Below, in pieces: positions 4,343-54,850 of a stretch of DNA of 64,000 nt. Below the pieces are notes generated by a model, which worked only from the letters and a program-made list of their open reading frames with translations, ran no database searches and was not told where the DNA came from. Both the position numbers and the translations under genes were made by a program. This stretch comes from Armatimonadota bacterium (GTDB taxonomy: Bacteria; Armatimonadota; DTGP01; JAKQQT01): assembly GCA_036504095.1 (NCBI GenBank), contig DASXVS010000002.1, forward strand, positions 118,184-182,183. The letters are read 5' to 3'. Position 1 is the stretch's first letter. Every line of letters starts with the position of its first letter.

Positions 4343-4386
4343 TCCTGCGCCTTACCGCCTTCAGATGAGCGCGGTAAGGCGCAGGA
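4343..4386. terminator. Perfect 16-bp stem hairpin downstream of the methyltransferase gene
   Basis: TCCTGCGCCTTACCGC / GCGGTAAGGCGCAGGA inverted repeat with a 12-nt loop, 24 nt after the stop at 4319. No U-tract. Confidence 0.45.
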
Positions 4387-4480
4387 TTGCCTCGCGTGCC
4401 CGTGCGGATCCCGGCGGGATTTGCGGCCTTGATGGCGGTTCAGTACACAATGCATCATCAACGCGATGAGGTGTATCTCC

Positions 4481-7400
4481 ATGAAGACCGGTATGCGCTG
4501 TCTGCTCTGGTTTGCCGCGGTATTGTCCCTCTCCAGTTCGGCGTTAGCAGGTGCCCTCGAAACGGGCTTTCACTCGCCCCCTCCATCCGCCCGGCCGTGG
4601 GTCTACTGGTTCTGGCTGAACGGTAACATCACCCGGGAAGGCATCACGGCCGACCTGGAGGCGATGGAGCGCGTCGGCATCGGTGGCGTGCTGATCATGG
4701 AAGTGGACCAGGGCGCCCCCAGAGGCCCGGTCGATTTCATGGGCGCCCAATGGAGGGCATTGTTCGCCCACGCCGCATCTGAGGCGAAACGCCTCGGCCT
4801 CGAAATCAACATGAACAACGACGCGGGCTGGAACGGCAGCGGCGGCCCGTGGATCAAGCCAGAACAATCCATGCAGAAGGTGGTCTGGAGTGAAACCTCT
4901 CTCGCAGGTCCGCAGCGCTTCGAAGGGACGCTTCCCCAACCCCAGACCGTTGCCGGCTTCTACCGCGACATCGAGGTGCTCGCATTCCCGACACCCGGGC
5001 CGTACCGGATACCGGATATCCAGGTGAAGGCTGCGTATCAGGTGGGCGCGGTTGGCGCGGCGGAGGCAGCTGACCTGGCACCGGAGATGGTCATCGACAC
5101 GAAGCAGGTCACCGACATCACCTCCCGGATGGATGCGACCGGGCGAGTCAATTGGGACGTTCCTGCGGGAAATTGGACCGTCATGCGCTTCGGGCATACG
5201 AGCACCGGCGCCGTCAATGCGCCCGCCCCGGAAACCGGCCGTGGGCTTGAATGCGACAAGTTGAGCGTGGAAGGCGCCGAGGCGAATTTCGGCGGAATGA
5301 TGGCCAAACTCGTCGCGGACACCGGCTCCGCTCCCGGCAAGGCGCTGGTTGCCACGCACGTGGATAGCTGGGAGAACGGGTCGCAGAACTGGACCGCCCG
5401 CATGCGCGACGAGTTCCGGCACCGGCGCGGTTACGACCCGCTGCCGTTTCTGCCCGTGATGACCGGCCGCGTGGTCGGGAGCGCGGAGGTATCGGAACGA
5501 TTCCTATGGGATCTTCGCCGTACCATTTCCGAACTCGTCGTTCAGAACTACGCCGGACGCATCCGGGGCCTCGCCCACGCGAACGGCCTGAGATTCACCA
5601 CCGAGGCGTACGGCGGCCCGTGCGACGACCTCCCCTACGGAGGGCAGGCGGACGAACCGATGGGCGAGTTCTGGATGGGCGGAGGCTCCATCGAGACGTG
5701 CCGGGGCATGGCCTCGGCCGCGCACGTCTACGGCAAGCCCATCGTCGGGGCGGAGTCGTTCACCGCCGGCAGTGACGAGCGGTGGCTCCAACACCCCGCT
5801 TCAATCAAATCTCTCGGAGACCGCGCCTTCTGCGAGGGAATCAACCGCTTCGTCTTCCACCGTTACGCGATGCAGCCGTGGGTGGATAACCGGCGTCCCG
5901 GTATGACGATGGGCCCGTGGGGGCTTCACTACGAGCGCACACAAACGTGGTGGAACCAGTCTGCCGCGTGGCACACCTACCTCGCGCGCTGCCAGCAACT
6001 GCTGCGGCAGGGAAGATACGCGGCCGATATCTGCTACCTCCAGGCAGAGGCGCCACCGCAGGCGTTCAACGGACACAGGCCGGCCGGTTACGCCTGGGAC
6101 GAGTGCCCCGCCGAAGCCGTGCTCACACGCATGACGGTGAAGAACGGGCGCATCGTGCTGCCTGACGGGATGAGCTATCGGGTTCTGGTGCTGTCCGAGT
6201 CGCGAAACATGACGCCCGCCCTGCTGCGGAAGCTCGGCGACCTCGTGAAGGCCGGCGCAACCGTTATCGGCCCGCGTCCGCTGAAGTCGCCGAGCCTGAG
6301 CGGCTATCCGCAGTGCGATGACGAAGTGAAGCGACTGGCCGACGAAATATGGGGCGATTGCGACGGCAAAGGCGTGAAGGAGCACCGGTATGGCCTCGGG
6401 CGCGTGATATGGGGCGTCGCGCCGGAGAAGATTCTCTCTGGCTCGGGAACGGGACCGGATTTCACCGGCGGGCAGCGCCTGAACTGGATCCACCGCACTG
6501 TCGGAACCACGGAGATCTACTTCCTGGCCAACCCCCAGGCGAAGCGCGTGGCGGCAGCGTGCACGTTCCGCGTAAGCGGCAAGACGCCCGAGTTGTGGTG
6601 GCCGGAAGCTGGTCGCATCGAGCGCGCTCCGATATACCGCCTGGACAAGGGCGCTACGACCGTCCTGCTGCCGCTTGGGCCCAGCGAGTCCGTCTTCGTC
6701 GTCTTCCGGAGCGCCGCCGCGAAGAGCGACCCGGTGATGGCGGTCAAACGCGGCGGTACGACCGTGCTCTCCCTGGTGTCCGGTCCCGCGCTCCCGATCG
6801 TCGTGAAGAGAGCTTCGTACGGCGTTCTGGGTGACCCCGCCCGGACACGGGACGTCCGGGCAGAGGTTCAGCGCCTCGCTGACTCCGGCGAGCGCGAGTT
6901 TCAGGTCGCGGAAATGGCGGCCGGCGATGATCCCGCATACGGCATCGTCAAGACGCTCATCGTTGATTACACGTTAGGCGGTAAGCGGGCTACGGCCAGA
7001 GGCGTCGATCCTGAGCGCATAGACCTGGATTCATTCACGCCGGATACAGCCCCGCAGTGCGAGCTGGCCGGTTCGGGCAGCCTCGAGCGCCTCACCGTTT
7101 GGCAGCCGGGCCGATACACGGTCGTACGCGCAAGCGGCAGGGCTCAGATTCTGACCATGCCCGATGTTCCAGCTGCTTTGAGCATCGGAGGCCCATGGAC
7201 GGTCTCATTCCCGCCCGGTAACGGCGCACCGGAGAGGATTCGGCTGGAACGGTTGGCCTCTCTGTCCGACTATCCCGATCCGGGTGTGAAGTACTTCTCC
7301 GGAACGGCGGTGTGGCGCACGACAATACACGCGCCGGCCGGCGCGTTCGGCAACGGCCGCACGATGCGGCTGGAACTCGGCGACGTTCAGGTGATCGCCG

Positions 7401-7744
7401 AGGTGAAACTGAACGGCAAGGGCCTAGGCATCCTCTGGAAGCCCCCGTACAGCGTGGACGTAACCGCCGCGCTCAAGCCCGGCGTGAACAGCCTGGAGGT
7501 CAAGGTGACCAACCTGTGGCCGAACAGGTTGGTCGGCGACGAGCAATTGCCCGAAGACAGCGATCGTAACGGGGACGGCACGCTCAAATCCTGGCCGCAA
7601 TGGCTGATCGACGGTAAACCCAGCCCGACCGGTCGCCTCACGTTCACCAGTTGGCGCTTGTGGAGGAAGGACGATGCCCTGCTGCCATCGGGCCTGCTTG
7701 GTCCGGTGACGATCCGGGCGGGCCGAACGTTCGTAATTGAGTGA
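4481..7744 (+). CDS. Secreted glycoside hydrolase, large (~1087 aa); possibly GH106-like (alpha-L-rhamnosidase family)
   Basis: Signal peptide MKTGMRCLLWFAAVLSLSSSALA; N-terminal motif ARPWVYWFWLNGNITREGITADLEAMERVGIGGV recalled from large CAZyme families; GAGGTG Shine-Dalgarno 7 nt upstream of the ATG at 4481. Family needs HMM confirmation. Confidence 0.55.
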   Translation: MKTGMRCLLWFAAVLSLSSSALAGALETGFHSPPPSARPWVYWFWLNGNITREGITADLEAMERVGIGGVLIMEVDQGAPRGPVDFMGAQWRALFAHAASEAKRLGLEINMNNDAGWNGSGGPWIKPEQSMQKVVWSETSLAGPQRFEGTLPQPQTVAGFYRDIEVLAFPTPGPYRIPDIQVKAAYQVGAVGAAEAADLAPEMVIDTKQVTDITSRMDATGRVNWDVPAGNWTVMRFGHTSTGAVNAPAPETGRGLECDKLSVEGAEANFGGMMAKLVADTGSAPGKALVATHVDSWENGSQNWTARMRDEFRHRRGYDPLPFLPVMTGRVVGSAEVSERFLWDLRRTISELVVQNYAGRIRGLAHANGLRFTTEAYGGPCDDLPYGGQADEPMGEFWMGGGSIETCRGMASAAHVYGKPIVGAESFTAGSDERWLQHPASIKSLGDRAFCEGINRFVFHRYAMQPWVDNRRPGMTMGPWGLHYERTQTWWNQSAAWHTYLARCQQLLRQGRYAADICYLQAEAPPQAFNGHRPAGYAWDECPAEAVLTRMTVKNGRIVLPDGMSYRVLVLSESRNMTPALLRKLGDLVKAGATVIGPRPLKSPSLSGYPQCDDEVKRLADEIWGDCDGKGVKEHRYGLGRVIWGVAPEKILSGSGTGPDFTGGQRLNWIHRTVGTTEIYFLANPQAKRVAAACTFRVSGKTPELWWPEAGRIERAPIYRLDKGATTVLLPLGPSESVFVVFRSAAAKSDPVMAVKRGGTTVLSLVSGPALPIVVKRASYGVLGDPARTRDVRAEVQRLADSGEREFQVAEMAAGDDPAYGIVKTLIVDYTLGGKRATARGVDPERIDLDSFTPDTAPQCELAGSGSLERLTVWQPGRYTVVRASGRAQILTMPDVPAALSIGGPWTVSFPPGNGAPERIRLERLASLSDYPDPGVKYFSGTAVWRTTIHAPAGAFGNGRTMRLELGDVQVIAEVKLNGKGLGILWKPPYSVDVTAALKPGVNSLEVKVTNLWPNRLVGDEQLPEDSDRNGDGTLKSWPQWLIDGKPSPTGRLTFTSWRLWRKDDALLPSGLLGPVTIRAGRTFVIE

Positions 7745-10959: not shown

Positions 10960-11062
10960 GCGGAAATGATGAAATCTGAACGATGAACGATGAACGCCGA
11001 GCTTCAAAGCGGAGGGCCGGGGGAACCGGCGGCGATCCGGCGCCTGATAAGAATCAGAGGCT

Positions 11063-16708: not shown

Positions 16709-18145
16709 ATGGCTGTCACCGATCATTCAATCCTGCCGAAAACGCCCGCCGGGGAGATGCTCGCCCTCTGGCTGGACGCCGTGAACTCCGGCGACTTCGA
16801 GACGATCCGTCGTTTCATCAGCGAAAGCCATACCGCCGCTGCGCTGGCGACTCGCAACGCCAGGCAGCGGGCGGCGGCACGCGTGCGGACGTGGACCAAC
16901 ACGCGCGGCCTGACGGCGCGGCGGATCGTCGCGTCGAAGCCGCACGCTCTGAACGCCCTGCTGTTCGGGAACCTGGCGGAGGATTGGTGGAACGTTCGCA
17001 TCGAAGTGGAGCCGGATCCGCCGCACCACGTCAAATCACTCTCGCTCTCGCCCGCGGCCGCGCCGGACGACCTGCGCGAAGGCGGCCCGTTGTCGCCGCC
17101 CGAGATTGCCGAACGACTCGACGCCTACACCGCGAAGCTCGCAGATGCCGACATTTTCTCCGGCGCCTATCTGCTTGCGCGAAACGGCGAGGTGCTCACG
17201 GCCGGGGCACGCGGCCTCGCCAGCCGCGCGTGGAAAGTCCCAAACACCGTGCAAACCCGGTTCAACCTCGGGTCGTGCAACAAGATGTTCACCTCGGTCG
17301 CGATCCTTCAGCAGATCGAATCCGGACGGATCGCTCTGGACGACCGGATCGGCGGCATTCTGCCCGACTACCCCAACGAAGACGTGGCCGCGAACGTGAC
17401 GATCCGCCATCTGCTCACGCACACCTCGGGCCTGGGCTCGTTCTTCAACCAGCAGTTCGCGGGCGCATCGCGCGCGCGATTTCGCAAGGTCGCCGATTAT
17501 ACGCCCCTCTATGAGCGCGAGCCTCTCGAGTTCCGCCCCGGCGCGCGGTTCAGCTACAGCAACTCCGGCATGATGCTTCTGGGTGTGATCCTGGAGAAAG
17601 TGACCGGCGGTGACTACTTCGAGTACATTCGCGAGCGCATCTACGGGCCGGCCGGCATGACCCGCAGCGATTCCTACGACCTCGATGCGGACGAGGCGGA
17701 CATCGCGGTCGGCTACACCAGCACGGGCGCGGACGGTGGCCACCAATCCGGACCGCGCCGCAGCAATGTCTTCACACACATCGCCAAGGGCAGCCCCGCC
17801 GGTGGAGGTTTCTCAACGGTCGAGGACATGCTGCGTTTCGACCAGGCGCTCCGGGGCAACGTCCTGCTTAAGCCGGAGACCACCGCGCTGATGCTCACGC
17901 CGCAGGCATCAACGGACTTCGATCCGTCAGTGAAGATCGGATACGGGGTCTTTCTGGAAGAGTCGGCCGGCAAGCGCATCGCGGGCCACAGCGGCGTGTT
18001 CGCGGGCGTGAACTCGCAGTTGGACATGCACCTGGACACCGGGTTCACCGCTGTCATCCTGAGCAACTACGATCCGCCCGCCGCCAAGCGCGTGGCCCAC
18101 AAGGTGAGGGAGTGGGTGGCGGGGGGAGTGATGAATGATGAGTGA
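16709..18145 (+). CDS. Serine hydrolase, beta-lactamase/transpeptidase superfamily, with an extra N-terminal domain
   Basis: S-x-x-K motif (SCNK), YSN motif (YSNSG), HSG near the C-terminus; no signal peptide seen. Confidence 0.75.
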   Translation: MAVTDHSILPKTPAGEMLALWLDAVNSGDFETIRRFISESHTAAALATRNARQRAAARVRTWTNTRGLTARRIVASKPHALNALLFGNLAEDWWNVRIEVEPDPPHHVKSLSLSPAAAPDDLREGGPLSPPEIAERLDAYTAKLADADIFSGAYLLARNGEVLTAGARGLASRAWKVPNTVQTRFNLGSCNKMFTSVAILQQIESGRIALDDRIGGILPDYPNEDVAANVTIRHLLTHTSGLGSFFNQQFAGASRARFRKVADYTPLYEREPLEFRPGARFSYSNSGMMLLGVILEKVTGGDYFEYIRERIYGPAGMTRSDSYDLDADEADIAVGYTSTGADGGHQSGPRRSNVFTHIAKGSPAGGGFSTVEDMLRFDQALRGNVLLKPETTALMLTPQASTDFDPSVKIGYGVFLEESAGKRIAGHSGVFAGVNSQLDMHLDTGFTAVILSNYDPPAAKRVAHKVREWVAGGVMNDE

Positions 18146-18185
18146 TGAATGATGAGCGATGGACGCCCGGATTCAGGGGTTCAGT
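18128..18185. repeat. Word-repeat element copy (GATGAATGATGAG tandem words followed by CCCGGATTCAGGGG)
   Basis: GTGATGAATGATGAG x2 then CGATGGACGCCCGGATTCAGGGG; overlaps the last codons of the serine hydrolase (..VMNDE stop); related copies at 48697, 51245, 54800 and inverted copies at 19165, 51411. Confidence 0.6.
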
Positions 18186-19164: not shown

Positions 19165-19200
19165 GCTTTCATCGCTCATCGACCATCGTTCATCGTCTTC
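19165..19200. repeat. Inverted copy of the GATGAA word repeat
   Basis: CTTTCATCGCTCATCGACCATCGTTCATCG is the reverse complement of GATGAACGATGG / GATGAGCGATGAA words; lies between convergent stops. Confidence 0.55.
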
Positions 19201-19201
19201 G

Positions 19202-19633
19202 CTACAGCGCGTACACCTCCGCACTTGGGACCACCTGCACGCCGCTGGCGGCCAGCGTGTCTACCGCCTTGTCGATGTCCTCCACACGGAAGATGACCAG
19301 GGCGTTGTCGCGGAACTTCTCCGTGAACGCGTAGAGGTATTCCACACTCACATCTGCCGAGCCGAGGGCTTCCATGATGTGTGACAGGCCGCCGGGCCGG
19401 TCCGGGACTTCCACCGCGATGACATCGGTGAGTCGCGTCACGAATCCGGCGGCCTTGAGCACCAAGACGGCGGCGGCGGGGTCGGTGACGATGAGGCGCA
19501 AAACGCCGAAATCGGACGTATCGGCCAGGCAGAGCGCCCGCATGTTGATGTGCGCCTCGCCAAGCACCTTTGTGACCGCGGCCAGGCGGCCGGGCTTGTT
19601 CTCAAGAAACACGGAGAGTTGCTGTACGCGCAT
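19202..19633 (-). CDS. ACT-domain protein (small-molecule-binding regulatory domain)
   Basis: Two ACT-like beta-alpha-beta-beta-alpha-beta halves; last gene of the iorAB-paaK operon. Confidence 0.65.
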   Translation of the reverse strand: MRVQQLSVFLENKPGRLAAVTKVLGEAHINMRALCLADTSDFGVLRLIVTDPAAAVLVLKAAGFVTRLTDVIAVEVPDRPGGLSHIMEALGSADVSVEYLYAFTEKFRDNALVIFRVEDIDKAVDTLAASGVQVVPSAEVYAL

Positions 19634-19726: not shown

Positions 19727-21040
19727 CTACACTTCCCGCAGATCCACCACCCGCTTCGCCTTGCCCTCGCTCCGCGGGATGGTGCGCGGCTCCACCAGCC
19801 GGACCCTCACCGAAATTCCAAGCACGTGCGTGATCTCGCTGTGGATACGTTTCTCAAGGTCTTCGATGGCCCGGATTTCGTCGTTGAACATCGCGTCCGA
19901 CACCTCCACGCGGACCTCGATCTGGTCCAGATGCCCGGCGGCGCGGTCCACAACGATCAGGTAGTGCGGCTCCAGGTAGCCCAGTTCCAGAAGCGCCGAT
20001 TCGATCTGCGACGGGAAGACGTTCACACCGCGCACGATGAGCATGTCATCGGTGCGGCCCATCAGGCGCTCCATGCGGGTCACCGTGCGCCCGCACGCGC
20101 ACTTGTCCGTGTAGAGGCGCGAGAGGTCGCGCGTACGGTAGCGCAGCGCAGGCGCCGCCTGCCGGGAGATCGTCGTAAACACGAGTTCTCCGGTTGCGCC
20201 CGGCGGCAGGACCTCCTCCGTCTCGGGATCGATGATCTCCGGGATGAAGTGGTCCTCGCAGACATGAAGCCCGCACTGATGCGGACACTCATAGGAAACG
20301 CCAGGGCCGATCACTTCAGTCAGGCCGTAGATATCCAGCGCAGTGATCCCGAGCTTCGCCTCGATATCGCGCTGCATGGCGTTGGACCACGGCTCCGCCC
20401 CGAAGAACCCCACGCGCAGTTTCAGGGAGTCAAGCGGGATGCCTTCGTCGCGGATGGTCTCCGCCATGTACGCCGCAAACGACGGCGTGCACGCGAGAGC
20501 GGTGGCCCCGAAATCCTGAAGAAGCGTGATCTGGCGCTTGGTGTTGCCGCCCGAAACGGGAACGACCGTGGCGCCGACCCGCTCGGCCCCGTAATGAAGG
20601 CCCAGACCGCCGGTGAAAAGGCCGTAACCGTAAGCCACCTGGATGATATCGCCCGGAAAGACACCGCCGGCCGAAAGCGTCCGCGCGATGCATTCCGCCC
20701 AGAGCGCGATGTCGTCGCGCGTGTAGCCGACGACGATCGGCTTACCGGTGGTTCCCGAGGAGGCGTGAACCCGGACCACGTCGCCCATCGGGGAGGCAAA
20801 CAGGCCGAACGGGTAGTTGTCCCGCAGGTCGGTCTTCACCGTGAAAGGGAGGACATGGAGGTCGTCGATTCCACGGATGTCGCCCGGGCAGATGCCCTTC
20901 GCGTCCATCGCCTTACGGTAGTGTGGCACGTTGTCGTAGCAGCGCCGCACCGTATCGCGAAGCCGTTGTGATTGCAGTTCGCGCATGGCATCGCGATCCA
21001 TGCATTCGATCTGTTTGTTCCAGATGATGGTGTTGGTCAT
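19727..21040 (-). CDS. paaK: Phenylacetate-CoA ligase
   Basis: 437 aa; adenylate-forming motifs SSGTTGKP and YGLTE; start placed by codon arithmetic at MTNTIIWNKQ; the 5' remainder of the 696-aa track ORF is read-through. Confidence 0.85.
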   Translation of the reverse strand: MTNTIIWNKQIECMDRDAMRELQSQRLRDTVRRCYDNVPHYRKAMDAKGICPGDIRGIDDLHVLPFTVKTDLRDNYPFGLFASPMGDVVRVHASSGTTGKPIVVGYTRDDIALWAECIARTLSAGGVFPGDIIQVAYGYGLFTGGLGLHYGAERVGATVVPVSGGNTKRQITLLQDFGATALACTPSFAAYMAETIRDEGIPLDSLKLRVGFFGAEPWSNAMQRDIEAKLGITALDIYGLTEVIGPGVSYECPHQCGLHVCEDHFIPEIIDPETEEVLPPGATGELVFTTISRQAAPALRYRTRDLSRLYTDKCACGRTVTRMERLMGRTDDMLIVRGVNVFPSQIESALLELGYLEPHYLIVVDRAAGHLDQIEVRVEVSDAMFNDEIRAIEDLEKRIHSEITHVLGISVRVRLVEPRTIPRSEGKAKRVVDLREV

Positions 21041-21120
21041 TTGGCCCTCATAGAGAATTGAGGGTTGAGAATTGAGATCTGAGGGTCCGGAGTCCGGTCT
21101 CATTTCTCCATTCTCATATC

Positions 21121-21783
21121 TCAAATCTGATGCTCCCACCCCGCGGCCAGGGCGCGTCGGTTCGACTCCAGGAACTTCGGCTTCACGGTGTCCGCCAGCG
21201 CCTGCTCCCATATTTCGCGCGGCAGGCCCAGTTCCCTGCCCAGACGTCCCAGAAGCACGACGTTCGCGGCTCGGGCGTTGCCGGCTTCGCACGCGAGGCG
21301 GTCGGCGTCCATGGCGAACACCTTCCCGCGCCGTGACACCGACTTCTCGACACCCTGCGGGTATTTCGCCGTGCCAAGGATCACCGGCATTGGCGAGATG
21401 ATCTGCGTGCTCATGATAACAGCCGCATCCGGCTTCAGCATGTGCGACCAGCGCAGCGCTTCCAGTTGCTCGAAAGCCAGTATGAAATCCGCTGTTCCCG
21501 GGTCGATCGTGGGTGCGAAAATGCGGTCGCCGATTCGCACCTGGGTCACCACGGCGCCGCCGCGCTGGGCCATGCCGTGAGTTTCGGAGAACTTCACGTC
21601 TTTGCCCGCAAGTAATGCCACGCGGGACAGAATTCGCGCCGCCAGTATCGTCCCCTGCCCGCCAACACCAACAATGAGTATTGAGGTCGGGTCCAGGGCT
21701 GAGGGCTGAGGGCTGAAGGCTGGGAGAGACGCAGGTATCGGCGCGGCGCCTGAATCTTGAATCCTGGATACTGGATCCTTCAT
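21121..21783 (-). CDS. iorB: Indolepyruvate ferredoxin oxidoreductase, beta subunit (with ~25-aa repeat-derived N-terminal extension)
   Basis: ILIVGVGGQGTILAARIL core; ATG overlaps the iorA stop in an ATGA arrangement, so the extension encoded by GGGCTGAGG words is probably translated. Confidence 0.8.
   Translation of the reverse strand: MKDPVSRIQDSGAAPIPASLPAFSPQPSALDPTSILIVGVGGQGTILAARILSRVALLAGKDVKFSETHGMAQRGGAVVTQVRIGDRIFAPTIDPGTADFILAFEQLEALRWSHMLKPDAAVIMSTQIISPMPVILGTAKYPQGVEKSVSRRGKVFAMDADRLACEAGNARAANVVLLGRLGRELGLPREIWEQALADTVKPKFLESNRRALAAGWEHQI
21695..21723. repeat. GGGCTGAGG word repeat inside the iorB 5' end
   Basis: GGGCTGAGGGCTGAGGGCTGAAGGCTGGG; encodes AFSPQPSALDP on the minus strand; the same words occur at 29281 and 60800..60951. 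Confidence 0.55.
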
Positions 21784-24397: not shown

Positions 24398-24673
24398 TTG
24401 ATTTTCGAATGGGATCCTCACAAAGCGGGGCTGAACGAAGCGAAACATGGGGTGCGGTTTGAAGAAGCCGCGAGCGCCTTGGCCGATCACTTGTCGCTGA
24501 CGAACCCGGATCCGTTGCACTCCGAAGAGGAAGACCGGTTTGTCACGTTTGGGATGTCTTCACGGCAGCGCGTGATCGTTGTCGTTCATACAGCGCGAGA
24601 AGGCCGAATTCGGCTGATAGGTGCACGCGTAGCGACACCGCGTGAAGTGAGAGCATATGAGCACAACCCTTGA
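24398..24673 (+). CDS. brnT: Type II toxin BrnT (DUF497 ribonuclease toxin)
   Basis: MIFEWDPHKAGLNEAKHGVRFEEA N-terminus matches the BrnT-family start; 91 aa. Confidence 0.75.
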   Translation: MIFEWDPHKAGLNEAKHGVRFEEAASALADHLSLTNPDPLHSEEEDRFVTFGMSSRQRVIVVVHTAREGRIRLIGARVATPREVRAYEHNP

Positions 24674-24881
24674 TCCGGACATGCTGGCTGAATATGAGTT
24701 TGAAGGTGGAGAGCGCGGCAAGTTCGCCGCGGACTACGCGCACGGCACAAACATCATAATCTTGGAACCGGAACTGATGGACGTTTTTCCGGACAGTGAA
24801 AGCGTCAACGCGGCGTTGCGCCCATTAGCGAACCTGATTCGGTCTCGAACCCTGTCGACTGCTCCATCCGCGAAGACTTAG
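24657..24881 (+). CDS. brnA: Antitoxin BrnA-like
   Basis: 74-aa ORF overlapping the brnT 3' end; YEFEGGERGKFAADYAHGTNII resembles BrnA. Confidence 0.65.
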   Translation: MSTTLDPDMLAEYEFEGGERGKFAADYAHGTNIIILEPELMDVFPDSESVNAALRPLANLIRSRTLSTAPSAKT

Positions 24882-24918: not shown

Positions 24919-25719
24919 CTATAGCGCCCGTAGCCCCAGTTCGGCTTCGATCTCGACCAGAAGCTTGCGGTCCTCGTGCGTGAAATTGTGCCTCTTCAGG
25001 AGGTCCGGCCGGCGCTCCAACGTCAGGCGCATACTCTCCTTCCTGCGCCAGCGGCGGATCGCCTCGTGGTTGCCGCCCAGCAGAATCTCGGGTATCCTCC
25101 ACCCCCGATACTCCGCCGGCTTGCTGAAATGCGGGTATTCGAGCAGCCCCTCGCTGAACGATTCTTCTTCGAACGACTCGCCGCGGCCCAGCACGCCCGG
25201 GATGAGCCGCGCCACGGAGTCCACGATCGCCATTGCCGCAATCTCGCCACCGGTGAGCACATAGTCGCCGATAGAAACCTCGTCGGTCACCAGATGTTCC
25301 CGCACCCGGTCATCCACGCCTTCGTAACGCCCGCAGAGGATGACCAGGCGGCCGCACGCGGCGAACTCCTCGGCTTTGCGCTGCGTATAGGGCTTGCCGC
25401 CGGGCGTGGTGAGCACTACACGCGCGCCGGTTTCGCCCGCCGTCAGGTCCTCCACGCAACGGAAAATCGGATCCGGGATCATCACCATGCCGGCCCCGCC
25501 GCCGAACGGCGTGTCGTCCGTCTGGTGGTGTTTATCCGTGGTGTAATCGCGCAAATTCACCGCGCGCAGATCGAGCAAGCCCTTGTCCCGGCCGATCTTG
25601 AGCATCGAGTTGTTCAGCACGCCGTCGAGCATCTCGGGGAAGATGGTCACTATGTCTACACGCAGCCTCGCGGCAGTAATCGCGTTGACCTCGTTCTTCT
25701 CGATCGGGCAATCATTCAT
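24919..25719 (-). CDS. trmD: tRNA (guanine37-N1)-methyltransferase
   Basis: 266 aa; VDIVTIFPEML near the N-terminus, SPOUT-type SIGDYVLTGGE; start placed by codon arithmetic. The rest of the 869-aa track ORF is the antisense shadow of the gene at 25780..27834. Confidence 0.8.
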   Translation of the reverse strand: MNDCPIEKNEVNAITAARLRVDIVTIFPEMLDGVLNNSMLKIGRDKGLLDLRAVNLRDYTTDKHHQTDDTPFGGGAGMVMIPDPIFRCVEDLTAGETGARVVLTTPGGKPYTQRKAEEFAACGRLVILCGRYEGVDDRVREHLVTDEVSIGDYVLTGGEIAAMAIVDSVARLIPGVLGRGESFEEESFSEGLLEYPHFSKPAEYRGWRIPEILLGGNHEAIRRWRRKESMRLTLERRPDLLKRHNFTHEDRKLLVEIEAELGLRAL

Positions 25720-25779
25720 ACTGCAATTGTAGACCGCCTGCGCCCGCGCCAGGCTGCACCATGAGGAACCGGAATCTGT

Positions 25780-27834
25780 ATGCAACCTATCGTGAACCTG
25801 TGGAACGACTCGGAGGCCGCCGCGCTCGGCGACGTCGATATCCTCGCCTATGTGTCCCGTCTGCTCGGCGCGGATCCCAGCCTCGTCGTCTGGGGTGGAG
25901 GCAACACATCCATCAAGACCAGTGAGACGGATTTCCGAGGCCGCCACGTCGCGGTGCTCCGCGTGAAAGGCAGCGGCAGCGACCTCAAGGCCGCCAAGCC
26001 CGCCGATTTCCCTGCGGTTTTCATGGACGACCTGCTGCCGCTGCTCAACCGCGGCGCGATGAACGACGAGGAGATGGTCTCGTGGGTGAACCACTCCCTC
26101 CTCGAACCGAACTCGCCGCGCCCGAGCATTGAGACGCTCCTCCACGCCTTCGTGCCCGCGAAATGCGTTCTGCACAGCCACGCTGACGCCATCGTGGCGC
26201 TCACCAACAACGAACGCGGCGAAGAGGTTATCCGCGAGGTATTCGGCGAAGACCTTGGCGTCATCCCGTACATTCGGCCCGGCTTCCGGATGTCTCAGAT
26301 GGTCGGCGAGGCAGCCCGCAAAAACCCGGCGCTGAAAGGCGTCGTCCTGATGAACCACGGGCTGGTCACATGGCATGACGACCCGCGCGAAGCCTATGCG
26401 CTGCACGTGGAAATGGCGAACCGCGCCGTTGCCGGCATCCGGCATCCTGCATTCAGCATTCAGACTCCAGAGTCCGTCCTGGATGCTGAATGCAGGATGC
26501 AGAATGCTGCGTCTCTCGCGCCGACGCTGCGCGGCCTTCTGGGCGCGGACAAGCGCGTGGTGATGCGGTACGACGACTCCGAAGATGTCCTTCGGTTCGT
26601 GAACTGGGACCGCGCGCCGGAAGCGACCCGGAAGGGCGCCGCCACGCCGGACCACATCCTCAGCAGCAAGCGCCGTCCGATGTGGGTGATCGCGGACAAC
26701 CCGGCCGACATCGAAAGCCTCCGCACCGCCGCGCGGGAAGGCCTGGAGGACTGGCACCGCGATTACCGCCAGTGGTACGAAACGTTCAACTCCGGCGAGG
26801 AAATGCTGCCGCCGTACCCCCGCGTCATACTCGTGAAGGGATTGGGCATGTTCACCGCGTGGGACAACTCGGCCAGGGCCGTTATCCCGGCGGATATCTA
26901 CCACCATACCATCTCCATCATCGAAGCGGCGGAAAGCATCGCCCCGTACCGAAGCCAGTCCGACGCCGACGCCTTCGCCTCGGAATACTGGCCGCTGGAA
27001 CTCTACAAGCTCACGCTCGCGCCGCCGGAAAAGGAACTCGCCCGGCGCGTGGCGCTGGTGACGGGCGCCGCCGGCGCGATCGGCGCGGGCATCGCGCGCA
27101 AGTTCGCCGCCGCGGGCGCACACGTAATCTGCGCCGATCTCGACCTGCCGAAAGCGCCATCGCTGGCTTCTGACATCACCGCCGCGAACAAGGCGAACCC
27201 CGCGTTGGCCGTCGAAATGGACGTCACGAGCGAGCCGTCGGTCCAGGCAGCGTTCCGGCAGATCGCTCTGGCGTACGGCGGCATCGACATTCTCGTTTCC
27301 AACGCCGGCATCGCGCATAGCTGCCCCATTGACTGTCTGGAACTCGCCGACTGGCAGCGAAGCCTCGATGTGAACGCCACCGGCCATTTCCTGGTAGCGC
27401 GCGAAGCGCTGCGGATGATGAAGCAGCAGGGGACCGGTGGAAGCCTTGTTTTCATCGCGACCAAGAATGTCACCTCGCCCGGAAAGGACTTCGCGGCCTA
27501 CAGCGCGGCGAAATCCGCCGAGGCGCAATTGGCGAAGGTTCTGGCGCTGGAGGCGGGCCCGTTCGGCATCCGCAGCAATATGGTTAATCCGGATGCGGTA
27601 TTCGAGGGCAGCGGATTATGGTCGGACGAGGTGCGGGAGCAGCGTGCGAAGGCGCAGGGTATCCGGCCGGAGGAAATCGAGGAGTTCTATCGGAAGCGCA
27701 ACATCCTGCAGGCGAACGTAACGGCCGAGGATGTGGCGGAAGCGGCGTTGTTCCTGGCATCGGACCGCAGCGCCAAGACGACGGGCGCGATGATCCCGGT
27801 TGACGGCGGGATCAAGGACGCGTTTCCTCGGTAG
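25780..27834 (+). CDS. Bifunctional rhamnulose-1-phosphate aldolase / short-chain dehydrogenase
   Basis: N-terminal class II aldolase-like domain and C-terminal SDR domain (TGAAGAIG Rossmann motif, YSAAK catalytic motif); 684 aa. Confidence 0.8.
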   Translation: MQPIVNLWNDSEAAALGDVDILAYVSRLLGADPSLVVWGGGNTSIKTSETDFRGRHVAVLRVKGSGSDLKAAKPADFPAVFMDDLLPLLNRGAMNDEEMVSWVNHSLLEPNSPRPSIETLLHAFVPAKCVLHSHADAIVALTNNERGEEVIREVFGEDLGVIPYIRPGFRMSQMVGEAARKNPALKGVVLMNHGLVTWHDDPREAYALHVEMANRAVAGIRHPAFSIQTPESVLDAECRMQNAASLAPTLRGLLGADKRVVMRYDDSEDVLRFVNWDRAPEATRKGAATPDHILSSKRRPMWVIADNPADIESLRTAAREGLEDWHRDYRQWYETFNSGEEMLPPYPRVILVKGLGMFTAWDNSARAVIPADIYHHTISIIEAAESIAPYRSQSDADAFASEYWPLELYKLTLAPPEKELARRVALVTGAAGAIGAGIARKFAAAGAHVICADLDLPKAPSLASDITAANKANPALAVEMDVTSEPSVQAAFRQIALAYGGIDILVSNAGIAHSCPIDCLELADWQRSLDVNATGHFLVAREALRMMKQQGTGGSLVFIATKNVTSPGKDFAAYSAAKSAEAQLAKVLALEAGPFGIRSNMVNPDAVFEGSGLWSDEVREQRAKAQGIRPEEIEEFYRKRNILQANVTAEDVAEAALFLASDRSAKTTGAMIPVDGGIKDAFPR
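26440..26512. repeat. Imperfect palindrome embedded in the aldolase/SDR coding sequence
   Basis: GCATCCTGCATTCAG ... CTGAATGCAGGATGC perfect 15-bp inverted repeat with flanking CATTCAG/CTGAATG words, coding for ..GIRHPAFSIQTPESVLDAECRMQNAAS.. Confidence 0.5.
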
Positions 27835-27837
27835 CGC

Positions 27838-28176
27838 TCAGGAGCCCGTGGCCGGCGGCCACGGCAGGGAACGCAGCACCTCCGTGTCTGAGAAACCGCA
27901 GTCCAGACAGGCAGGCACGTCCGAACCGCCCTCGATCGGGGGGACGAAGGCGTGCTCAACCGGGCGGTGGCACTGGCTGCACCATCGCCATTTCTCATCC
28001 ACGAGGAAGCGGTAATAGTCGCGAGCCATATGCTTCCAGTGGTACAGGGCGGGTCTCATGATCCCATCCTCCGTTGGAAGACCCCTGTTGGCGTCTTCCC
28101 TCCACAGGATATATACCACACTGGGGCGCGCCATCAAACAGTTAGCGGACGGACATTGGATGCGCCATTCGCCCAC
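27838..28176 (-). CDS. Small Cys-rich hypothetical protein (possible zinc ribbon)
   Basis: C-x2-C ... C-x2-C arrangement (CSQCH, CLDCG); weak call. Confidence 0.3.
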   Translation of the reverse strand: MGEWRIQCPSANCLMARPSVVYILWREDANRGLPTEDGIMRPALYHWKHMARDYYRFLVDEKWRWCSQCHRPVEHAFVPPIEGGSDVPACLDCGFSDTEVLRSLPWPPATGS

Positions 28177-28446
28177 TTCCGCCCGTCGGCCAAAGCGGTC
28201 GGATAGCCCTGTCGGTTGGTCGATCCGCCGATTCCAAACGCCGCCTATGCGCTCGTTACAACCGCGGCGTCCGCCGTCGGACGGTTCCCCGTTCCCGTCT
28301 AAACCTGCGTCAGTCGGTGCGCCACTCGTTCACGGTGCGTCGGGCAAGGGAACACGCGTGGAATACGGCTCGCGGCCGCTATGCCGGGGGCCCTTCGTTT
28401 GGGCGAGCGCCCGGGAAGGTAAACATGTAAGCAAGGGAGAAGAAAA

Positions 28447-34019: not shown

Positions 34020-34085
34020 GGTATCGGGTGCGGGGTCCAGGGTCTAGCCACTCAACCCTACACCCTGGACCCCATACCCTAGACC
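34017..34085. repeat. Long imperfect GC-rich hairpin (GGGTAT / GGGGTCCAGGGT words and their complements)
   Basis: GGGTATCGGGTGCGGGGTCCAGGGTCTAG ... CTACACCCTGGACCCCATACCCTAGACCC, immediately after the VOC stop. Confidence 0.5.
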
Positions 34086-34091
34086 CTTGCC

Positions 34092-35006
34092 ATGTACGAT
34101 CAGATTGCCGCGAACAAACGGGACTCCGGATTGCTGCTCATCGGCGTGATGCTGCTTCTGCTGGGCATCGGCTACGTTTTCGCGCGCGCCGAGGGCCTTC
34201 CTGTTGAGTTCGGCCTCTTTGCCGCCGCTTGCGTCGGCGTGGTCGCGTGGTTGACGGCCTATTTTGGCGGAAGCTCGATGCTCCTCGCGGCGAGCAGCGC
34301 ACGGCAGATATCGCACGAGGACGCACCGCAGCTCTTCAATGTCGTTGAGGAGATGTCGATCGCGGCCGGGCTGCCGATGCCGAAGGTGTACATCATCGAT
34401 GACTCGGCGCCCAACGCGTTCGCCACGGGCCGCAGCCCGGAGACCGCCAGCCTCGCCATCACTACCGGCCTGCTGGAGAAACTCAGCCGCGATGAGCTTC
34501 AGGGCGTGATGGCGCACGAGATGTCGCACGTCCGCAACTTTGACACCCGGCTCATGATGCTCCTGGCCGTGCTCGTCGGCGGCATCGTGCTCGCGGCGGA
34601 CGCCTTCTGGCGCATCAGCTATTTCGGCGGCGGACGGCGGCGAGACAGGGACAGCGACGGCGGCGGGCAGTTGCAGCTGCTCTTCATGGTACTCGCGATC
34701 GCCCTGGCGATCCTGGCCCCCATCTTCGCCAAGATGCTCGAAATGGCGGTCTCCCGCCAGCGCGAATACCTGGCCGACGCCAGCGCCGCGCTCATCACTC
34801 GCTATCCGGCGGGGCTCGCCGCAGCCCTTGAAAAGATCAGCGCCGACCCCGAGCCGCTGGAGGCCGCCAATCGCGCTACCCAGCACCTCTATATCGTGAA
34901 TCCGCTCAAGGGCGCCACGCAGAAGGCCGCCGGCCTGTTCGATACCCACCCTCCCATTGAGGAGCGCGTAAGAAGGCTGCGCGCGATGGAAAGCCATCCG
35001 GCATAG
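34092..35006 (+). CDS. htpX: HtpX-like M48 membrane metalloprotease
   Basis: HEMSHV zinc motif, N-terminal TM helices, second metal-ligand region EYLADASAA. Confidence 0.8.
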   Translation: MYDQIAANKRDSGLLLIGVMLLLLGIGYVFARAEGLPVEFGLFAAACVGVVAWLTAYFGGSSMLLAASSARQISHEDAPQLFNVVEEMSIAAGLPMPKVYIIDDSAPNAFATGRSPETASLAITTGLLEKLSRDELQGVMAHEMSHVRNFDTRLMMLLAVLVGGIVLAADAFWRISYFGGGRRRDRDSDGGGQLQLLFMVLAIALAILAPIFAKMLEMAVSRQREYLADASAALITRYPAGLAAALEKISADPEPLEAANRATQHLYIVNPLKGATQKAAGLFDTHPPIEERVRRLRAMESHPA

Positions 35007-35098
35007 AGTTCCGGGTTTCGAGTTCCGGGTTCCGAGTTCCGGGTTCCGAGTTCCGGGTTCCGGGTTCAGGGTTCAGGGTTTCGGGTTCCGGATTCCGA
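35005..35098. repeat. Tandem heptamer/14-mer array (GAGTTCC GGGTTCC)n, about 13 heptamer units
   Basis: GAGTTCCGGGTTTCGAGTTCCGGGTTCCGAGTTCCGGGTTCC... directly after the htpX stop. Confidence 0.7.
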
Positions 35099-35128
35099 TC
35101 ACACGGTACGACCGGCGTCCCGCCGGTC

Positions 35129-35164
35129 ATTCACCCGGTGGGCCCGCAATCAATCTCCCACCGG
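35129..35164. repeat. Perfect 11-bp stem hairpin inside the structured intergenic element
   Basis: CACCCGGTGGG (14-nt loop) CCCACCGGGTG. Confidence 0.5.
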
Positions 35165-35270
35165 GTGCGCTTCGCGCTTGTTGTCGACGAGTTTCTTTGC
35201 TCCGCTCAGAATGACAAAGGCCAGGACCCTCCGCACCTTTCCCCGTGTTAGGCCTATATTGAGACGTAAG

Positions 35271-35300
35271 GCTCGGAACCCGGAACTCGAAACTCGAAAC
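35271..35300. repeat. Inverted partial copy of the 35005 heptamer array
   Basis: CGGAACCCGGAACTCGAAACTCGAAACCC is the reverse complement of the array start (17 nt identical). Confidence 0.6.
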
Positions 35301-35306
35301 CCAAAC

Positions 35307-47530: not shown

Positions 47531-48007
47531 TCATCGTTCTTCGTTCAGCGTTTGCGTGGGCAGGGGGTTCGTCATCCCCTCGGGAACGAGCTCATTGGCG
47601 AACTCGATGACCTTGTCGTCGTTCAATTCGGCGTCATCGTACCCGTTCCACTTCTCCAGGCTCCAGATCTCGGCCACGTTGCCGTTGCCGATAACCACCA
47701 CGTCGCCCTGGATTTCCGCCTTGTCCCGAAGGTATTTCGGAATCAGCACCCGTCCCGCCTCATCCGGCGTCACTTCGGTGGCGGCGCCCATATAGAACCG
47801 CCGCAAAGCGAGGGCCTTCTTATCGGTGTCGGCGATCCGGCCCAGTTTGTCGAGGATCGTCTGCCACTGAGCCGGCGGGTAGAGCGCGATGCAGCCGCTG
47901 AACCCGCGCGTCAGGACGTAGGGCGCCTCGAACGCCTCCCGTAATTTCACGGGAAGAACGAGGCGACCCTTGCTGTCCAGGTTGTGGGTTGTGGAGCCGG
48001 AATACAT
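47531..48007 (-). CDS. mraZ: Transcriptional regulator MraZ
   Basis: LDSKGRLVLPVKLR and a second half VVVIGNGNVAEIWSLEKW; duplicated MraZ/SpoVT-AbrB-like halves; 158 aa. Confidence 0.8.
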   Translation of the reverse strand: MYSGSTTHNLDSKGRLVLPVKLREAFEAPYVLTRGFSGCIALYPPAQWQTILDKLGRIADTDKKALALRRFYMGAATEVTPDEAGRVLIPKYLRDKAEIQGDVVVIGNGNVAEIWSLEKWNGYDDAELNDDKVIEFANELVPEGMTNPLPTQTLNEER

Positions 48008-54783: not shown

Positions 54784-54850
54784 CTATGAGTATAGGGAAC
54801 GAAGCGATGAATGATGAACGATGGGCGATGAATAGCGGAGGCGGATTGAG
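54784..54850. repeat. Diverged copy of the GATGAA/CGGAGG word-repeat element
   Basis: GAACGAAGCGATGAATGATGAACGATGGGCGATGAATAGCGGAGGCGGATTGAGC. Confidence 0.55.

Follow-up and report, generated by a model that had tools for sequence, protein, structure and literature searches.

According to a passage in PMC4679880 (citing Mrazek et al. 2007), heptamers are the most over-represented long simple-sequence repeats in bacteria, possibly as a result of polymerase slippage. The heptamer arrays of Xanthomonas (GGGAATC / GGGANTN) and Nostoc (GGGGAYT) consist of heterogeneous 7-nt units, preferentially four per array; they lie near stop codons, are under-represented in coding sequences (CDS) and turn over rapidly between species while the locus is retained, and Xanthomonas carries 70-75 convergent array pairs per genome (PMC4692102). 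The TAACTGA direct repeats of marine Beggiatoaceae, Cyanobacteria and Bacteroidetes are intergenic, scattered across phyla and lack an evident transposition mechanism; as the authors note, they can be tolerated in open reading frames (ORFs) only at permissive places, such as the junctions of modular proteins (PMC4679880). Here we report a palindrome composed of two inverted heptamer arrays that lies in frame within an intact gene for a bifunctional rhamnulose-1-phosphate aldolase / short-chain dehydrogenase (SDR) of an Armatimonadota bacterium. The gene is located on a stretch of 64,000 nt (assembly GCA_036504095.1, contig DASXVS010000002.1, positions 118,184 to 182,183), which is referred to as the window; coordinates are those of this stretch.

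Two further phenomena are relevant for comparison. Rickettsia palindromic elements (RPE), as described by Ogata and colleagues in 2000, are reportedly multicopy sequences of ~100-150 bp that share a family consensus and add length to a protein relative to its orthologues. Quasi-palindrome template switching, associated with the work of Ripley in 1982 and of the Lovett laboratory in E. coli, is said to make imperfect inverted repeats more perfect by copying from one arm to the other.

The palindrome is of a kind with the 7-nt simple-sequence-repeat arrays, and the hairpins made of them, that occupy intergenic regions of the same genome. It probably arose in place as an inverted pair of four-unit heptanucleotide arrays, with the hairpin as a tolerated by-product. 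A sequence-only reading of the locus had compared it with intergenic word-repeat elements and had proposed an in-frame insertion into a tolerant linker or an mRNA structure affecting translation.

Results

The palindrome is real and goes beyond chance. Its perfect arms of 18 nt, separated by a spacer of 23 nt, form the longest perfect inverted repeat of the window (loop of up to 60 nt; Table 1), and after dinucleotide shuffling of the window (100 replicates) the longest such repeat averaged 11.4 nt and reached 14 nt at most. When mismatches are allowed, the arms extend to 29 nt (26435-26463 and 26479-26507; 90% complementary) with 26 Watson-Crick pairs, one G-U pair and two mismatches around a loop of 15 nt; the core of the hairpin is a stem of 22 nt (21 Watson-Crick pairs and one G-U pair) that continues into these arms. 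The sense RNA folds with -50.6 kcal/mol, compared with -29 +/- 3.5 kcal/mol for shuffled sequences (z -6.2; equalled by 0 of 200 shuffles), and the single-stranded DNA of the palindrome with -28.9 kcal/mol (z -6.0). The fold is better than that of 986 of 1000 synonymous recodings of the same peptide (the other 14 fold as well), a null model that is only mildly informative because the peptide itself derives from the palindrome. A single copy is present in the window, even with three mismatches allowed. The sequence-only reading had described a 15-bp inverted repeat inside the aldolase/SDR coding sequence, and both 15-mers are indeed there (GCATCCTGCATTCAG, 26442-26456; CTGAATGCAGGATGC, 26486-26500), as parts of a perfect repeat that is longer than claimed. 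The separation of 23 nt given for them is that of the 18-nt repeat, the 15-mers being 29 nt apart; and of the additional CATTCAG/CTGAATG words, CATTCAG is exact on the left (26457-26463), while the right side has only variants with one mismatch (CTGGATG, 26479-26485; CAGAATG, 26500-26506).

Each arm consists of four degenerate 7-nt units in tandem. Tandem Repeats Finder returned period-7 repeats at 26432-26452, 26449-26463 and 26483-26507, and positions 26432-26463 form a lag-7 array with a score of 13. Runs of three or more G are absent from the units (GCATCCK, GCATTCA, GGATGCW, GAATGCW). Because seven and three share no factor, an array with a TGA-containing unit cannot stay perfect in an ORF, and a perfect CTGAATG array would give an in-frame TGA within three units; the alternation of CTGAATG and CAGGATG keeps TGA out of frame and preserves the codon of R239. 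The GC content at third codon positions (GC3) is 0.56 at the palindrome versus a gene mean of 0.82 (third lowest among 660 windows compared), and rare codons are abundant in the segment (GCA, GCT, CCT, CCA, ACT, AGG, AAT, ATT). Low GC3 and the many rare codons indicate that the repeat pattern, not codon bias, dictates the sequence of the segment.

The host protein is 100% identical to HEY3411572.1 (P0001), a third-party annotation (TPA) entry from an Armatimonadota metagenome-assembled genome, and comprises the Pfam domains Aldolase_II (residues 22-214) and adh_short (residues 423-678). The palindrome corresponds to codons 219-243, immediately past the Aldolase_II domain; the stand-alone aldolase-like protein 3m4r (PDB; 222 aa) aligns with host residues 7-222 and ends there. 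The AlphaFold2 model of the host protein, with a mean predicted local distance difference test score (pLDDT) of 84, has a helix at residues 202-219, a loop at 220-235 and a second helix at 236-254, and the mean pLDDT falls to 55 over residues 221-230. The left arm, which is variable in the homologue alignment, falls at the end of the first helix and in the loop, and the residues coded by the left arm and the hairpin loop lie mainly in this low-pLDDT loop. The right arm (L234-A243) codes for the start of the second helix and carries the near-invariant residues R239 and A243. Among homologues, the linker is hypervariable in both sequence and length, which together with the poorly modelled loop bears out the proposal of a tolerant segment.

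The proposed in-frame insertion of about 20-25 residues was not borne out. Measured between the invariant residues H209 and A247, the linker of the window protein has 37 aa and is among the shorter ones in a comparison with 22 homologues (34-58 aa); its length equals that of the nearest orthologue (P0002, 87% identity), and orthologues without the left arm have linkers of 34, 35 and 45 aa. The right arm codes for R239, A243 and an E-x-R motif that are conserved family-wide, and its peptide (...D-A-E-C-R-M-Q...) resembles that of a 56%-identical homologue (...D-T-E-C-R-R-Q...). Since these residues are conserved throughout the family, the right arm is old coding sequence rather than inserted DNA. 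Other lineages do not conserve the residues coded by the left arm. Judged by these alignments, the palindrome is no net insertion.

A scan of genome contigs with the host protein yielded no clade relatives, and the homologues it found were all distant (Paenibacillus at 47% identity and others). Orthologue DNA was compared for four syntenic relatives (L001, L002, L004 and L005), with trmD upstream where the flank was long enough; L001 stems from an independent sample (ENA ERZ27272751). The protein tree places L004 and L005 outside a trichotomy of the window, L001 and L002. L001 (87% protein identity) aligns with the window codon for codon and has a weaker hairpin in register with that of the window, also with a loop of 15 nt (-39 kcal/mol, z -2.3). 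Its right arm differs from that of the window at 2 of 29 nt and its left arm at 9 of 29 nt, and all four left units carry a C-to-G change at the same unit position (GCAT... in the window, GGAT/GGGG... in L001), which amounts to concerted turnover of the array and not to independent point mutations. The concerted change breaks three of the four unit pairings in L001; the only compensated change in a left unit is that from C-G to G-C at 26450/26492.

The left array is absent from L002, L004 and L005, whose linkers fold no better than shuffled sequences (z -0.6 to -1.5). They contain a small 7-bp hairpin instead (GTCCGGC-CTCCGT-GCCGGAC at L002:8490-8520), which shows a compensatory C/G swap in L004 (GTCGGGC...GCCCGAC, L004:3815-3845) and whose segment is duplicated in L005 as a 30-nt tandem repeat (L005:10660-10725; TVGWASVPD x2). 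A degenerate array at the position of the right arm (CTGAATC/CTGAATG/NGAATCC-like) is retained in the window and all four relatives, and the Arg codon varies among the clade sequences (AGG, AGA, CGC, CGA) while Arg is kept. The linker of the outgroup (67% identity) is without heptamers, and more distant homologues have no comparable sequence. This distribution is most parsimoniously read as an old right array under constraint from the protein and a left array that would have been produced in place later, in the lineage shared by the window and L001.

Period 7 is specifically enriched in the Armatimonadota genome sampled here. Over the 64 kb, 13 lag-7 arrays had a score of at least 9, compared with 0-2 at lags 5, 6, 8, 9 and 10; six reached a score of at least 12, which was attained at no other lag from 4 to 12 and by no lag-7 array in 20 shuffles. 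Based on gene calls for 15780-37834 and crude calls elsewhere in the window, nearly all arrays are intergenic, and most begin no more than ~25 nt from a neighbouring stop codon (several at 6-17 nt). The arrays of the palindrome are the only strong ones inside a called CDS and form an exception to this non-coding, near-stop placement. Inverted heptamer pairs are also located at 21053/21098, 34032/34062, 35008/35277 and 60799/60914, and each intergenic hairpin uses a heptamer unit of its own, with no multicopy consensus in the window. L012, a second Armatimonadota contig from the same metagenome that carries the 67% orthologue, has eight intergenic arrays in four inverted pairs, one of which includes a (GCATTCA)x5.7 array (L012:12587). 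The likeness to intergenic word-repeat elements thus stands: the arms are 7-nt tandem arrays of a kind that is enriched in the genome and often occurs as inverted pairs.

The arm sequence itself recurs elsewhere. A metagenome-wide scan with the 18-mer arm GCATCCTGCATTCAGCAT gave 20 single matches, including several duplicate loci, with the window's own contig not among them. About 13 of the 20 look like chance, and by a rough estimate a collection of that size should contain an 18-mer a few tens of times by chance. At least six or seven loci (L014, L020, L022, L023, L024, L027 and possibly L013) carry the 18-mer within heptamer arrays, with hairpins of the pattern (GAATGCA/GAATTCA)n - unrelated loop - (GCATCCT/GCATTCA/GCATTCT)n, whose loops are unrelated to that of the window and to each other. 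They are intergenic wherever the context was read: the hairpin of L014 lies between convergent stop codons and that of L022 one base past a stop codon. The gene next to the L014 hairpin is nearest (~76% identity in a cluster look-up, which gives an approximate taxon) to proteins of Vicinamibacterales; the host of L014 is probably a member of this order (Acidobacteriota), and the recurrence would thus cross phyla. Among the unit consensuses of the window, L012 and the loci found by pattern search, a set that is partly search-biased, 25 of 31 contain CTG/CAG and 17 of 31 contain TGA/TCA, the latter against an expectation of ~15%.

Table 1. Coordinates of the palindrome, its host gene and related hairpins (positions in the window unless a locus is given).
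Feature	Position	Strand or context	Remarks
Left (5') arm, GCATCCG GCATCCT GCATTCA GCATTCA + G	26435-26463	+	Four 7-nt units; codes for (G)IRHPAFSIQ, codons ~219-228
Left perfect 18-nt core, GCATCCTGCATTCAGCAT	26442-26459	+	Longest perfect inverted repeat of the 64-kb window
Hairpin loop, ACTCCAGAGTCCGTC, 15 nt	26464-26478	+	Codons T229-V233; TCCGT part homologous to S-V codons of orthologues
Right (3') arm, CTGGATG CTGAATG CAGGATG CAGAATG + C	26479-26507	+	Four 7-nt units; codes for LDAECRMQNA, L234-A243
Right perfect 18-nt core, ATGCTGAATGCAGGATGC	26483-26500	+	Maximal inverted repeat
Bifunctional rhamnulose-1-phosphate aldolase / short-chain dehydrogenase, 684 aa	25780-27834	+	ORF and Pfam
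Inverted pair GAGAATT/GAGGGTT ... TCTCATT	21040-21135	intergenic	-32.5 kcal/mol, z -3.4; own unit
Inverted pair GGGTCCA ... ACCCTRG	34025-34095	intergenic	-37.2 kcal/mol, z -5.0; own unit
Inverted arrays (TGAGGGC)n and (GCCCTCA / GCCCTACCCCCTCA)n	60795-60960		RNA fold -98.8 kcal/mol, z -7.0
Soil-metagenome hairpins sharing the exact 18-nt arm	L014:4362-4431; L022:1012-1092; L023:242-304; L024:1895-1960; L027:1620-1692		

Other arrays of the window vary in architecture. The pair at 60795-60960 lies between a gene on the + strand ending at 60794 and a convergent gene on the - strand ending at 60953, and zips around three small internal hairpins. The longest array of the window, (GTTCCGG/GTTCCGA/GTTCAGG) x ~13, is located within 35008-35306, just downstream of a stop codon at 35006; 6 nt separate the end of its inverted partner (CGGAACC/CGAAACT) from the next gene start (35307), and the ~180 nt between the two contain an 11-bp hairpin of their own (35132/35157). 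Arrays with an (N)NGATGA / TGAACGA core occur at or just past gene ends (10977-10996, 18126-18161, 19169-19203, 47531-47552, 54805-54832) and present TGA in all three frames; that at 18126-18161 overlaps the stop codon of a beta-lactamase-family gene. Such arrays might stop translation in every frame or work as 3'-end elements. At L012:12580-12725 (and also at L012:6605-6735), (GCAUUCA)x5.7 pairs with (GCUGAUM)n through only five of every seven nt (UCAGC:GCUGA), so that a periodic 'zipper', interrupted by 2x2 internal loops, encloses a perfect central hairpin of 26 bp between convergent genes (L012:12580-12725; -107 kcal/mol, z -17).

The second-longest perfect inverted repeat of the window (4343-4386) has a 16-bp stem TCCTGCGCCTTACCGC with a loop of 12 nt that is not composed of heptamers; it lies 23 nt past a gene end and is a candidate for a conventional 3'-end hairpin. 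Inside a crude ORF (4466-7744), (TACCGGA)x2.3 is followed by the near-palindrome ACCGGATATCCAGGT (5003-5030), possibly a further weak feature of the heptamer or palindrome type in coding sequence. An antisense ORF of 869 aa (24919-27528, - strand) runs across the palindrome, because of which it encodes a mirror peptide (...ILHPAFSIQ...LNAECRMPD...); it was rejected as a gene, being a high-GC artefact fused to the real trmD (24919-25719). Adjoining trmD are a gene of the BrnT toxin family (24398-24673) and an overlapping gene of 74 aa (24657-24881), which likely constitute a toxin-antitoxin pair of the BrnT/BrnA type.

Discussion

The evidence is best accommodated by an origin in place. The right array would be the older one, as it overlaps conserved E-x-R...A-A codons and has a degenerate version at the same site in the four syntenic orthologues. 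The left array would have grown in the common lineage of the window and L001, within the unconstrained loop past the aldolase domain, where an ancestral ...CGCATCC... sequence may have served as its seed. Growth by replication slippage, probably with additional intrastrand quasi-palindrome template switching against the right arm (including templating from right to left), would have replaced the earlier loop sequence without adding length. For the concerted change of the four left units, slippage within the array is a better explanation than template switching. The result would have been tolerated because only loop residues changed. The hairpin in the mRNA or in single-stranded DNA would then be a near-neutral by-product with at most a minor effect on expression, for example by slowing ribosomes at the domain boundary.

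Several points weigh against this explanation. The recurrence of the 18-nt arm in intergenic heptamer hairpins of unrelated soil contigs is not predicted by pure local slippage and hints that certain sequences are preferred or that an element is spreading. In L002 and L004, the right array shows only a weak period of seven, which stays below the detection threshold. Direction and timing of the events can only be inferred, because the clade comprises five sequences and the window, L001 and L002 form a trichotomy. Between the window and L001 there is, besides the true compensatory pair at 26450/26492, one double change from a mismatch to a pair, and these compensatory changes and the near-perfect stem of the window also match selection for pairing.

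It is unlikely that the hairpin is itself the object of selection, as an mRNA or single-stranded DNA structure that slows ribosomes for co-translational folding or serves as a site of RNase III-type processing or stability that tunes expression. Such a function would fit the very stable, nearly perfect stem, its rank among synonymous recodings, its position exactly at the domain boundary, the same register and loop length in L001 with one compensatory C-G to G-C pair, and the different small hairpin in the linker of L002, L004 and L005 with its C/G swap between L002 and L004. It fits poorly with the lack of the hairpin in three of the five clade members, with the concerted C-to-G change of L001 that is uncompensated at three of four unit pairings and leaves a z of only -2.3, and with distant homologues that lack comparable sequence. 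Moreover, the Rfam 15 covariance models gave no match at the gathering score on either strand of the whole window, a scan for promoter and terminator consensus gave no result, with no terminator-like site on either strand of 25500-28300, and the sequence 3' of the stem (CTGCGTCTCTCGCG) is not the U-tract of an intrinsic terminator or attenuator. A role as frameshift stimulator was rejected, as the upstream codons (GCG AAC CGC GCC GTT GCC GGC ATC, read directly) contain no -1 slippery heptamer of the form X XXY YYZ. Also rejected was a relic of an intergenic terminator that predates the aldolase-SDR fusion: the fusion is common to homologues of Chloroflexota and Firmicutes, and the hairpin is limited to two genomes.

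A broader proposal, which we consider rather unlikely, is that of an actively maintained, cross-phylum system of heptamer hairpins, in which CTGA/GAAY-cored inverted 'zipper' arms at gene 3' ends of Armatimonadota and Acidobacteriota, with a related form in Xanthomonas, would be produced or kept up by a dedicated mechanism or binding protein and act as unconventional terminators or RNA-stability elements. Within the aldolase/SDR gene, either hairpin-templated repair or selection would then keep the arms complementary, with a modulating effect on the expression of this gene at its domain boundary.

Distinctly improbable is the in-frame landing of, or gene conversion by, a mobile or spreading palindromic element (RPE- or MITE-like) that replaced part of the linker. 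It would account for the exact arm in at least six or seven other metagenome loci, within inverted heptamer hairpins of the same unit family that are intergenic wherever the context was read, one of them in a host that is probably of a different phylum (Vicinamibacterales), as well as for the (GCATTCA)x5.7 array of the second Armatimonadota genome from the same sample and for the foreign-looking codon usage of the segment. Yet there is no gain in length over the orthologues, the right arm codes for conserved residues (with the ECR motif also in the 56%-identical homologue), each intergenic hairpin has its own unit, the palindrome is unique in the window, and most of the 18-mer matches are chance-like. 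The palindrome is flanked by no direct repeat except units of the array itself (CCGGCAT x2, 26432-26445), although an old target-site duplication could have decayed. A classical mobile element at this site is also disfavoured by the loops of the other hairpins, which are unrelated, and by the lack of a net insertion.

Chance similarity or an assembly artefact is highly improbable: chimeric assembly of metagenomic reads can create short inverted repeats, but no shuffle exceeded 14 nt, the ORF is intact and of normal length, L006, a JGI contig from the source metagenome, matches the window without a difference over its 22 kb, and the independent sample L001 shows the same architecture at 87% protein identity.

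The locus is a clean case of a non-triplet 7-nt array and a hairpin of -50 kcal/mol within the intact gene of a conserved enzyme of the rhamnose pathway. The units depart from the repeat at precisely those points where an in-frame stop would otherwise appear or the conserved Arg be lost, and the new arm lies in a disordered loop at a domain boundary. The locus is also a natural experiment on the shaping of protein linkers by mutational repeat processes that act genome-wide. For annotation, it is a warning that comparative evidence is needed before such a palindrome in a CDS is taken for an insertion or a regulatory RNA. Should selection turn out to maintain the stem, it would become a candidate for a translational pause or processing element at the domain junction.

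With the arrays of Xanthomonas and Nostoc and the short tandemly repeated repetitive (STRR) heptamers of cyanobacteria (Calothrix), the repeats of the window share degenerate 7-nt units, arrays of about four units, convergent stem-loop pairs and the enrichment of period 7; as in Xanthomonas and Nostoc, they lie near stop codons, are rare in coding regions and turn over while the locus is retained. They differ in that the units of the palindrome lack a GGG or GGGG tract, so that the G-quadruplex role proposed for the Xanthomonas and Nostoc arrays is inapplicable, in their locus-specific units, many of which contain CTGA/TCAG, in their Armatimonadota host and in the position of the palindrome in frame within a CDS, with one arm coding for conserved residues. 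TAACTGA repeats are likewise intergenic 7-nt repeats with a stop-codon-containing CTGA core and a scattered cross-phylum distribution; they consist of one fixed heptamer, lie mostly upstream of start codons and are almost never inverted, whereas the units of the window vary, lie mostly downstream of stop codons and commonly form hairpin pairs. Like an RPE, the palindrome is palindromic DNA in an intact ORF that is translated as a tolerated, surface-exposed segment; unlike an RPE, it is a single structure of ~73 nt with 7-nt units, no net insertion and no repeated consensus, and one of its arms is ancestral coding sequence. Quasi-palindrome template switching is a mechanism of mutation and not a family of elements; it accounts for clusters of complementary changes with no need for structural selection, and we infer its part at this locus. 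Nothing on heptamer repeats in Armatimonadetes came up in a literature search. Heptameric repeat hairpins, so far known mainly from Xanthomonas and cyanobacteria, are hereby extended to Armatimonadota and, probably, to Acidobacteriota.

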